NCBI RefSeq assembly: GCF_003334305.1
Contig: NZ_QOWS01000011.1
Length of the DNA: 64,000 bases
Reading direction: 5' to 3' (one strand)
Source of the DNA: Escherichia coli
GTDB lineage: Bacteria; Pseudomonadota; Gammaproteobacteria; Enterobacterales; Enterobacteriaceae
Positions within the stretch are counted from its first letter, which is position 1. Every line of letters starts with the position of its first letter. The translations under genes and the position numbers were made by a program. Below are positions 11,367 to 57,508 of this stretch, piece after piece. The notes beneath the pieces were generated by a model that ran no database searches, was not told the DNA's origin, and saw only the letters and a program-made list of their open reading frames with translations.

Positions 11367-12482
11367 TTAGAACTGGTAGACGATACCAACTGCAAACTGG
11401 TCATCAGCTGCTGCGCCAGTAATGGCGGCGTCATCTTTATCCAGCATGTTGAATTTGTATGCAGTATAAACGTTCATGTTCTTATTAAAGTAGTACCAGG
11501 TACCAACTTCAATGTAGTTCACACGGTCAGCGTCAACATATCTATGTCCAGGTACCCCTTTGATATCTTTACCTTTAGAGTACACATAACCTAAGGACGG
11601 ACGCAGACCAAAGTCGAATTGATACTGAACAACCGCTTCAAAGTTCTGGGTTTCATTGATAAGTTGATCACGCATTATTGTATTGCCTTCTCGATCGGCA
11701 ACACCTGTATCAATAGAACCCGGAGTCATATTACGAGTTTCGCCGTACATTACAGCTGCGTAGACATTGTTCGCGTCATACTTTGCAGCCAATGACCACA
11801 GTTCAGCATTTGAACCGTTTCCATCGGCAACTTGATCGTTGGTGCGATCAGATTTGCTATATGCACCAACGATACCAAAACCATTGATGTTATAGTCTAC
11901 AGACAACGCATAGCCGTCACCATTTTGTTTCTTAGTGCTACGGTTGCTGTTTTTGCCTTGGTACTGAATCGCAAAATCAAGACCATCAACCAGGCCAAAG
12001 AAATCATAGTTACGGTAGGTTGCAACACCGTTGGTACGACCATTCATGAAGTTGTCAGCGGAAGCCCAGGAATCGCCACCCCATTCAACTAACATATCGG
12101 TATAAGCTGCGGCATCATAAGCAACACCGTAGTTACGGCCATAGTCAAATGATCCTAACTCGTTATATTTCAAACCGGCGAAGGTTAAACGGGTTTTTTC
12201 CTGGTTTTCACCTTCGGGCTTGCTGGCGTCGAGGTTGTATTCAAACTGACCAAAACCAGTCAGTTCGCTGGTGATTTGGGTTTCACCTTTAACACCGAAA
12301 CGAGCATAGGAGGTATCTTCGTTTTCGCTGTTATTATCATCAGTATTTGACCAGATGCGTTCGCCAACCATCTTGCCGTAGAAATCAACTTTATTGCCAT
12401 CTTTATTATAAATTTCAGCCGCATTTGCTGCGCCAGCAACTAATAACGCCGGGACCAGCATTGCCAGAACTTTTCTTTTCAT
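11367..12482 (-). CDS. yedS: Intact OmpC/OmpF-family outer-membrane porin at the yedS position
   Basis: 371-aa frame from [21 protein letters not shown] (signal peptide) to a C-terminal F; classical porin motifs; sits where K-12 has the yedS pseudogene. Confidence 0.85.
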
Positions 12483-12796
12483 TATGTATTCCCTTGTGAT
12501 TATAATCTTCATGAATATATCAATAAGTGCCGTTATCCAAAAAAAAGCACATTTGGATACTATTCTATGAAGTTCATTTTATTTTAAGGATTACATGTAA
12601 CAAATGTATTTAAAAGATTTCAAAGTGTTTCTAATATATTTAATATAATTCAGGATTATGAATTCTGAATATAAACATTCATGAAGATTATAAATGTATA
12701 TCAATAAGTTATGAGTTGAACTGAAAGATAGGGAGTATCAATGATCGTTGCGCTAAACGGCTGGTGTGATCACGCGCACATTAATGAAGGCATAAA

Positions 12797-12826
12797 AAAA
12801 AGCCGGCATCATGCCGGCCCAAAAAA
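12797..12826 (-). terminator. Strong intrinsic terminator on the minus strand in the porin-yedR spacer
   Basis: GC-rich hairpin GCCGGCATCATGCCGGC followed by eight U on the minus strand. Confidence 0.7.
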
Positions 12827-12886
12827 TATAAACAAGACGATAAAAGGCTAATAACGGAGGCATCATGACACAGAATAATAAAAAGG
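12797..12886 (-). ncRNA. rseX: Candidate small RNA (about 90 nt) ending at the terminator; position consistent with RseX
   Basis: Possible sigma70 promoter (TTCAAT, 18-nt spacer, TACAAT) about 90 nt upstream of the terminator on the minus strand; RseX placed between yedR and yedS from memory; 5' end not established. Confidence 0.4.
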
Positions 12887-13030
12887 TATAATTGTAATCA
12901 GTGCTAATATATTGATTGAATGAATTAATAAAGCCGATATCAAAGATAAATAAAATCGCTCAAAACGATTTTTCTTGTATTCACTGCCGTTGCGCAAAAA
13001 TTATCTATTTGTTCAAAAAATGATTGAGTC

Positions 13031-13414
13031 TTGACTGGCTCATTCAATGTGGAAAAATGTGATTTTTATCACATAATAGTACTAAGTCTGAATTTTCCGG
13101 GTTATCTCAAAATGGAATACGGTTCGACAAAGATGGAAGAGAGACTCTCTCGCAGCCCTGGTGGCAAACTGGCTTTGTGGGCTTTCTATACATGGTGTGG
13201 CTATTTCGTCTGGGCAATGGCGCGTTACATCTGGGTGATGAGCCGGATCCCCGATGCCCCCGTGTCGGGATTTGAAAGCGATTTAGGCTCTACCGCGGGA
13301 AAGTGGTTAGGGGCACTGGTCGGATTTTTATTTATGGCTCTGGTCGGGGCATTGTTAGGCAGCATTGCCTGGTACACCCGACCTCGTCCCGCACGTAGCA
13401 GACGCTATGAATAA
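13031..13414 (+). CDS. yedR: Small inner-membrane protein YedR (start uncertain; alternatives at 13112 or 13133)
   Basis: ORF with two predicted transmembrane helices; the CRP site lies inside the longest ORF, so the true start may be downstream. Confidence 0.6.
   Translation: MTGSFNVEKCDFYHIIVLSLNFPGYLKMEYGSTKMEERLSRSPGGKLALWAFYTWCGYFVWAMARYIWVMSRIPDAPVSGFESDLGSTAGKWLGALVGFLFMALVGALLGSIAWYTRPRPARSRRYE
13058..13073. promoter_or_regulatory. Consensus CRP site (TGTGA-N6-TCACA)
   Basis: TGTGATTTTTATCACA, perfect match to both CRP half-sites. Confidence 0.6.
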
Positions 13415-13453: not shown

Positions 13454-14149
13454 ATGGACTTACAACACTGGCAGGCAGAGTTCGAAAACTGGTTGAAAAA
13501 CCATCATCAGCACCAGGACGCGGCCCATGACGTGTGTCATTTTCGCCGCGTCTGGGCTACGGCACAGAAGCTGGCGGCAGATGATGACGTCGATATGCTG
13601 GTGATTTTAACCGCCTGTTATTTTCACGATATTGTGAGCCTGGCGAAAAATCATCCGCAACGGCAGCGTTCTTCAATCCTGGCGGCAGAAGAGACGCGTC
13701 GCCTGCTCCGTGAAGAGTTCGTGCAATTTCCGGCGGAGAAAATTGAGGCCGTTTGTCATGCCATTGCCGCTCACAGTTTCAGCGCGCAAATCGCCCCCTT
13801 AACAACGGAAGCTAAAATCGTCCAGGATGCGGATCGGCTGGAAGCCCTGGGGGCGATTGGCCTGGCGCGCGTGTTTGCCGTTTCAGGGGCATTGGGCGTG
13901 GCGCTGTTTGATGGCGAAGATCCGTTCGCACAGCATCGCCCGCTTGATGATAAACGCTACGCGCTGGATCATTTCCAGACAAAGTTACTGAAATTACCGC
14001 AAACCATGCAAACCGCAAGAGGCAAGCAGCTGGCGCAGCACAACGCGCAATTTTTAGTCGAGTTTATGGCGAAGCTCAGTGCCGAACTGGCGGGGGAGAA
14101 TGAAGGTGTCGATCACAAGGTGATAGATGCGTTTTCACCCGCGGGCTGA
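13454..14149 (+). CDS. yedJ: HD-domain phosphohydrolase YedJ
   Basis: 231-aa ORF with HD motif (CYFHDIV). Confidence 0.9.
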
Positions 14150-57159: not shown

Positions 57160-57324
57160 GGTCCAGCCAGAAGAGTAAAAGAAAGCACTATTTTACGCGT
57201 TACAGCGCTGCGACAATGGCCGGAAAAGACGCCTGGCAGGCGCTATTTCTTGCCATCTGTAGGTGTCAGAAATGGGGGTGCTGCTTTTTGATTATCATTT
57301 TTATAACATTAAAAGGGTATTTAT

Positions 57325-57340
57325 GTGATTTGCATCACAT
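57325..57340. promoter_or_regulatory. Consensus CRP site upstream of azuC
   Basis: TGTGATTTGCATCACA; a second CRP-like site TGTGATGGTTGTCATA lies about 20 nt downstream. Confidence 0.65.
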
Positions 57341-57421
57341 AAAGATTGATTTTTGTGATGGTTGTCATATTATAAGTGCAAAGACAATAACACCTGCATA
57401 ACAAATAGTCGGAGTGCCGCG

Positions 57422-57508
57422 ATGAAACTGCGCAAGATCCTGAAAAGTATGTTCAATAACTATTGCAAGACGTTCAAAGACGTACCACCAGGCAATATGT
57501 TCCGATAA
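57422..57508 (+). CDS. azuC: Small protein AzuC (28 aa); the mRNA also acts as the IsrB/AzuR RNA
   Basis: Translates to MKLRKILKSMFNNYCKTFKDVPPGNMFR; below the size cut-off of the ORF track. Confidence 0.85.
   Translation: MKLRKILKSMFNNYCKTFKDVPPGNMFR

Follow-up and report, generated by a model that had tools for sequence, protein, structure and literature searches.

The drpB gene (formerly yedR) of Escherichia coli raises the question of why a perfect binding site for the cAMP receptor protein (CRP) should appear to lie inside a coding sequence. In the window, meaning the whole 64,000-nucleotide stretch of E. coli DNA that was analysed (contig NZ_QOWS01000011.1), the letters at exactly 13058-13073 read TGTGATTTTTATCACA, that is TGTGA-N6-TCACA with 10 of 10 half-site positions matched, and the perfect CRP consensus of the original prediction is confirmed. 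The prediction had also placed this site within a 127-aa ORF, and the ORF list bears this out: a 127-codon frame running from a TTG at 13031 to 13414 exists, encloses the CRP site and has in-frame ATG codons at 13112 and 13133. Two readings had been offered, either that yedR starts further downstream (at 13112 or 13133) and is regulated by CRP, or that the site serves the divergent porin/sRNA region. The evidence assembled here favours the former. The site is probably a high-affinity CRP operator that lies over the core promoter of drpB and represses it by promoter occlusion, and not an intragenic site. It looked intragenic because the old start codon of yedR was wrong.

The drpB locus and its CRP site

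The product of the gene, DrpB, is a small membrane protein associated with the divisome. When it is overproduced, the Rcs and Psp stress responses are switched on, and activation of the Rcs envelope-stress pathway by the overproduced protein is independent of RcsF. The segment carrying the gene has 100% identity with E. coli strain A7, and a match to it is present in 4,911 of 5,426 complete E. coli genomes. Compared with K-12 MG1655, the region 12700-13180 shows 97% identity with no internal indels, and window positions can therefore be converted to K-12 positions (NC_000913.3) as 2046533 minus the window position. Within the CRP site, the sole difference between the two is spacer position 6, which is T in the window and C in K-12. 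The features of the region are listed in Table 1.

Around the site the window reads ...atgtggaaaaaTGTGATTTTTATCACAtaatag..., and the 22-bp context at 13055-13076 (AAATGTGATTTTTATCACATAA) agrees with the extended CRP consensus AAATGTGATCTAGATCACATTT at 17 of 22 positions, counted by eye. The site has the palindromic consensus together with A/T-rich flanks. Across the 64-kb window there are two occurrences of TGTGA-N6-TCACA, where 0.02 would be expected from 100 dinucleotide-preserving shuffles of the window; none of the shuffles reached two matches. The other perfect match (TGTGATTTGCATCACA, 57324-57339) precedes azuC (isrB), the start codon of which, at 57423, is about 90 nt further downstream. 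The azuC promoter likewise has a perfect TGTGA-N6-TCACA upstream of a small-protein gene, and Table 1 of PMC8313858, citing Hemm 2010, names Crp as repressor of IsrB/AzuC. It differs from drpB in that the gene is a different one and in that a second, imperfect site (TGTGATGGTTGTCATA, 57345-57360) is found 5 bp downstream of the perfect one.

Table 1. Features of the drpB region of the window, with the basis on which each was placed.
Feature	Position	Strand	Product	Basis or remark
Porin, OmpC-family, intact (yedS, a pseudogene in K-12)	11367-12482	-		
rseX sRNA	12795-12884	-		Rfam RF01401, 99 bits, E = 1.2e-13
P1 -35 hexamer TTGACT	13031-13036	+		Consensus scan; invariant across Escherichia; probable P1 element
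Start codon TTG	13031	+	127 aa	Mechanical ORF
Start codon GTG (M1, GTG-1)	13049	+	121 aa	Old EcoCyc/UniProt start
P1 extended -10 TGgAAAAAT	13050-13058	+		Consensus scan; invariant in Escherichia; last T is first T of CRP site
P2 -35-like TGGAAA	13050-13055	+		Consensus scan
CRP binding site	13058-13073	.		10/10 half-sites; extended site 13055-13076
P1 transcription start	13064	+		SMRT-Cappable-seq only, ~1 nt uncertainty; CRP site centre at ~+2
P2 -10 hexamer CATAAT	13072-13077	+		Consensus scan; 2-bp overlap with right half-site
P2 transcription start	13084	+		Two independent datasets; CRP site centre at -18.5
Start codon ATG (M22, ATG-22)	13112	+	100 aa	Experiment; curated K-12 record
drpB (formerly yedR) CDS	13112-13414	+	100 aa	Experimentally supported start
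Start codon ATG (M29)	13133	+	93 aa	PGAP
yedJ (HD phosphohydrolase)	13454-14149	+		Co-transcribed with drpB
dcm	from 14216	+		

Start codon and promoters of drpB

The start codon of drpB has been addressed experimentally in K-12 by Yahashiri et al. (2020), who combined Met-to-Ala mutagenesis, stop codons and Western blotting of DrpB-GFP and found translation to begin at ATG-22, which is window position 13112 (PMC7648144). In their work a stop codon at position 10 left function intact while stops at positions 23 and 30 abolished it, and from the chromosomal locus the M22 form of DrpB-GFP was the only form detected (PMC7648144). The curated K-12 record has the same start, with a DrpB of 100 aa at 2033119..2033421, equivalent to 13112-13414 in the window. 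The PGAP records are in disagreement with it, placing the start at 13133 for a protein of 93 aa. Constructs beginning at GTG-1 expressed drpB without inducer, whereas those beginning at ATG-22 or ATG-29 needed inducer (PMC7648144), and this dependence places the drpB promoter between 13049 and 13111.

The N-terminus of DrpB homologues, which the original prediction had named as a check, leads to the same outcome. The NCBIfam profile NF038392 (div_DrpB_YedR) matches the ORF with 150.6 bits against a cut-off of 50, and positions 1-85 of its 86 correspond to ORF residues 36-120. The first 35 codons of the 127-aa ORF, including the CRP site, are hence outside the family. A Pfam-A scan gave no significant match; PF28000, the DrpB family recorded for homologues, was absent from that scan. 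When 16 DrpB homologues are aligned, the first aligned residue is the Met that corresponds to 13133. An in-frame stop interrupts the frame between the CRP site and the conserved start in 43 of 60 loci of other lineages, while in E. albertii there are deletions totalling 5 nt between the CRP site and ATG-22 as well as an in-frame stop upstream of ATG-22. The 127-codon ORF is not the gene and its extension is not coding. That yedR starts downstream, as had been proposed, holds by the ATG-22 mutagenesis, the curated 100-aa record and the mapped transcription starts described below.

It is worth mentioning that the start codon of drpB appears to have turned over between genera. Most genera (50 of 60 loci) show an ATG at the position equivalent to 13133. 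In Citrobacter and Salmonella a TTG preceded by GGAG is found 9 nt upstream of that position (loci L010-L013, L054 and L071), and both Salmonella loci have AGG as the codon equivalent to 13133. Escherichia has TTC in place of the Citrobacter and Salmonella TTG, and its ATG at 13112 sits at the Shine-Dalgarno-like GGAG of the other genera. ATG 13112 itself has no Shine-Dalgarno sequence before it, as was also remarked in PMC7648144. A 5′ leader block (AATTTTCCGGGTTATCTCAAAATGGA, 13090-13116) is invariant in the eight non-albertii Escherichia sequences and has small deletions in E. albertii; just upstream of it, 13074-13089 varies among the aligned Escherichia sequences.

Published 5′-end data place transcription starts at 13084 and 13064. 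SMRT-Cappable-seq reports a start at K-12 position 2033469 on the reverse strand, equal to window 13064, for a transcript covering b1963, b1962, b1961 and b1960 (drpB-yedJ-dcm-vsr), another at 2033449 (window 13084) and a further one at 2033099 (window 13434), in front of yedJ (PMC6131387). The start at 13084 is also found in the TSS-seq data of Kim et al. (2012), given as 2031473(-) in NC_000913.2, where the associated 51-mer (ACTGG...CATAATAGTACTA) ends at window 13084 (PMC3415461). No entry for the drpB locus was found in the Cappable-seq supplements. None of the mapped starts lies upstream of 13031; both of those in front of drpB are downstream of 13031 and of 13049, so that transcription from upstream of 13031, which had been named as grounds for rejecting a downstream start, is not what these data contain.

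A consensus scan independently proposed promoters that fit these starts, namely P1 (TTGACT-16-AAAAAT, preceded by TG, 13031-13058) and P2 (TGGAAA-16-CATAAT, 13050-13077). The CRP site is centred between 13065 and 13066 and overlaps both core promoter and transcription start, as it spans -26 to -11 of the 13084 start and -6 to +10 of the 13064 start. The spacings of class I and class II activators (-41.5; -61.5, -72.5, -82.5, -92.5) are found with neither start.

The best sigma-70 match of the region is a different one, ATGACA-16-TATAAT (11/12) at 12865-12892 on the plus strand. It lies antisense to rseX, over the 5′ end of that gene, and faces drpB; its predicted start is at about 12899, where TSS-seq (Kim 2012) and SMRT-Cappable-seq record no start.

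Conservation of the site across the Enterobacteriaceae

A scan with one genome per species yielded 68 drpB loci from about 20 enterobacterial genera, 67 of which were anchored on the conserved GKLALW codons. The genera include Escherichia, Citrobacter, Klebsiella, Raoultella, Kluyvera, Enterobacter, Lelliottia, Leclercia, Pseudocitrobacter, Trabulsiella, Atlantibacter, Salmonella (arizonae, diarizonae), Kosakonia, Phytobacter, Silvania and Intestinirhabdus. CRP half-sites matching at least 9 of 10 positions were present in 60 of the 67 loci and were perfect in 47, while only 42 of 13,400 shuffled control regions reached 9/10. The site is centred 77-99 nt upstream of the GKLALW codons (115 nt in one locus). 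The six spacer positions carry almost no information across the loci, and the retention of the half-sites in about 20 genera around a free spacer indicates selection on CRP binding beside drpB. The synteny of drpB and yedJ is kept in nearly all 68 loci.

The flanks of the site differ in their conservation, with 1.3-1.5 bits at -4, -2 and -1 on the left against 0.4-0.7 bits at +17 to +20 on the right. Taken together with the first T of the CRP site, the left flank spells TATAAT, perfectly in 21 of 60 loci and with at least five of six letters in 33 of 60. This asymmetric spelling (TATAA followed by the T of the site) points to a -10 hexamer fused to the operator as the conserved architecture, corresponding to P1 of E. 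coli. In nine Escherichia sequences the P1 -35 hexamer, the TGgAAAAAT element and both half-sites are invariant and four of the six spacer positions vary. The -10 hexamer of P2 varies among Escherichia lineages (CATACT, CATAAC, CACAAT, CATAAA). We infer that P1 is the ancestral target of CRP.

On the other side of the site, rseX was detected only in the Escherichia loci of the 68-locus set. A divergent porin is common upstream of drpB, but Lelliottia, Kosakonia and some others lack it and nevertheless keep the CRP site at the same distance from drpB. In Lelliottia the upstream neighbour of drpB is a co-directional 311-aa ORF, and in Kosakonia sacchari the nearest upstream ORFs are co-directional. 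As the site is kept without rseX or porin, it travels with drpB.

Within Leclercia, L. adecarboxylata NCTC13032 (L035) has a degraded site (TGTGATTTATTGCCGG) about 100 nt upstream of drpB, and two further Leclercia loci (L029 and L038) keep TGTGATTTATTTCACG. Together these provide a natural comparison for CRP control of drpB.

CRP binding, repression and competing explanations

For in vitro binding of CRP to the K-12 allele of the site (taTGTGAtaaaagTCACAttt), a Footprint-seq preprint (2026) estimates a Kd of 1.9 nM; its table marks the site as internal to yedR (PMC12871828). This label arose because the old 121-aa annotation of yedR was used; under the current start the gene begins downstream of the site. 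The proposal that yedR is regulated by CRP had also been anticipated in vivo, as Li et al. (2021) classed yedRJ under "Crp repression" and included it in their set of new operons confirmed by gel shift (PMC8085971). The class derives from transcriptomes of wild type and crp deletion on seven carbon sources, with yedRJ departing from its growth-rate trend in the crp deletion, and both this in vivo evidence and the gel shift are at the level of the promoter fragment and the operon (PMC8085971).

In CRP ChIP-seq of ETEC H10407, one peak is reported in the drpB intergenic region ("yedR/ETEC-specific") and none separately at the drpB site. The motif of the peak (CGTGATCTCGCGCACA) maps to a weaker site about 290 bp away, equivalent to window 12767-12782. 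The peak was at first a candidate for occupancy of the drpB site, at an apparent distance of 95 bp. This was dropped, as the published ETEC coordinates and NC_017633.1 differ by about 177-197 bp, a shift checked with a second motif near yedP, and the offset check assigns the peak to the 12767-12782 site. No entry for the drpB CRP site was found in the supplement of the K-12 ChIP-exo study (Latif 2018). H-NS/StpA are reported to silence the neighbouring rseX region (PMC8313858), and such silencing next door could limit the access of CRP to the drpB site.

The original prediction gave no direction of regulation; both the geometry and the published data point to repression. A site centred at -18.5 of one start and about +2 of the other is positioned to repress and not to activate. 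In outline, the two overlapping sigma-70-type promoters would start transcription at about 13064 (P1) and 13084 (P2), and cAMP-CRP bound to the site would occupy DNA needed by RNA polymerase and so exclude it, steric occlusion being the mechanism we infer from the geometry. High cAMP, as on a poor carbon source and in slow growth, would then lower expression of drpB-yedJ and read-through into dcm-vsr, and low cAMP would raise them. A role for the palindrome as an RNA hairpin was also considered and set aside, as P1 transcripts begin inside the palindrome and P2 transcripts downstream of it.

CRP repression by promoter occlusion is known from cyaA P2 and gal P2. The arrangement at drpB would be comparable to these, with a CRP dimer over the -10/+1 region of a sigma-70 promoter competing with RNA polymerase. 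At gal the site also activates a second promoter from -41.5, while neither mapped start of drpB is at an activating distance. Promoters activated by class I or class II mechanisms (the lac, galP1 and melR types) involve the same protein and motif as drpB, but their spacings of -41.5, -61.5, -72.5 and so on are unlike those found here. The drpB site is most likely an ordinary CRP operator on the drpB promoter, with a repressive effect, and it opens no new kind of mechanism.

Activation of drpB by CRP, as a class II or class I activator acting on a start near 13107 (-41.5) or 13127 (-61.5), is quite improbable. Most strong intergenic CRP sites do activate, and the conserved ATG at 13133 is 67.5 nt from the centre of the site, which would leave room for a class II promoter and a leader of about 26 nt. 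Neither TSS-seq (Kim 2012) nor SMRT-Cappable-seq has a start near 13107 or 13127, however, and the published in vivo class is repression. The class II reading in particular was rejected because 13095-13106 holds no acceptable -10 hexamer and there is no mapped start at about 13107. It is very unlikely that the site serves the divergent side, be it rseX, the yedS-like porin or an unannotated minus-strand promoter, and this part of the original prediction is not supported. The intergenic region is indeed divergent, the 12767-12782 site within it is both bound in vitro and under the ChIP-seq peak, and a GATAAT on the minus strand at 13005-13000, found by eye, would put CRP at the class I distance of -72.5. 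Against this, the drpB site is 181 bp from the start of rseX and about 580 bp from the porin start codon, the SMRT-Cappable-seq table has no minus-strand start near it, and it is retained at the same distance from drpB in genera without rseX or the upstream porin.

Tight binding in vitro with little consequence in vivo, either through occlusion by H-NS/StpA or with the site acting as an architectural or decoy site, is unlikely. The H-NS/StpA silencing of the adjacent rseX region and the want of a separate ETEC ChIP-seq peak at the drpB site would agree with it, but it accounts poorly for half-sites conserved in about 20 genera around a freely varying spacer and for yedRJ expression leaving its growth-rate trend in the crp deletion. 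Least plausible of all, to the point of being extremely improbable, is a truly intragenic site, in which CRP would act as a roadblock or internal regulator within a longer YedR of 121 aa (GTG 13049) or 127 aa (TTG 13031). Plasmid-borne GTG-1 can initiate translation once ATG-22 is removed (PMC7648144), and the strong sigma-70-like match at 12865-12892 might in principle drive transcription from further upstream. The chromosomal locus nevertheless yields the M22 form only, both mapped starts are downstream of 13049, and the N-terminal extension is outside the family profile and broken by the E. albertii deletions and stop and by the stops in 43 of 60 loci.

Nearly all elements of the repressor reading of the drpB site have been published, namely the start codon (2020), Crp repression (2021) and the in vitro affinity (2026), for what is the same locus in K-12 as in the window (start and promoter, PMC7648144; repression, PMC8085971; Kd, PMC12871828). 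The DrpB paper makes no mention of CRP (PMC7648144). What is added here is the joining of these three facts, the recognition of the "internal" label as an annotation artefact, and the family-wide conservation of the fused -10/CRP element; the conservation across genera and the -10 fusion are not stated in PMC7648144, PMC8085971 or PMC12871828, and none of them brings the three facts together. The result is of use chiefly for annotation, as PGAP (13133) and the Footprint-seq table conflict with the experimentally supported start at 13112. It also provides a simple, testable link from carbon status to DrpB expression, and the conservation makes this link likely to be functional and not incidental. 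More speculatively, the fused CRP/-10 element might be an ancestral, Enterobacteriaceae-wide switch that ties the level of a divisome accessory protein, and through P1 read-through also part of dcm-vsr expression, to carbon status, although we regard this wider proposal as somewhat doubtful. If it were true, low cAMP would be the condition under which single-copy DrpB rises, a condition stated as unknown in PMC11709261.

The region has a second CRP site, TGTGATCACGCGCACA (9/10), at 12767-12782, just past the 3′ end of rseX on the porin side. For its K-12 allele, which was assigned to yedS, in vitro CRP binding has an estimated Kd of 4.9 nM (PMC12871828). A possible target of this second site is the yedS-like porin, intact in this strain. 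The porin ORF, on the minus strand at 11367-12512 and annotated as "porin", is identical in strain A7 and ETEC H10407 (WP_000824355.1), while yedS of K-12 is a frameshifted pseudogene.
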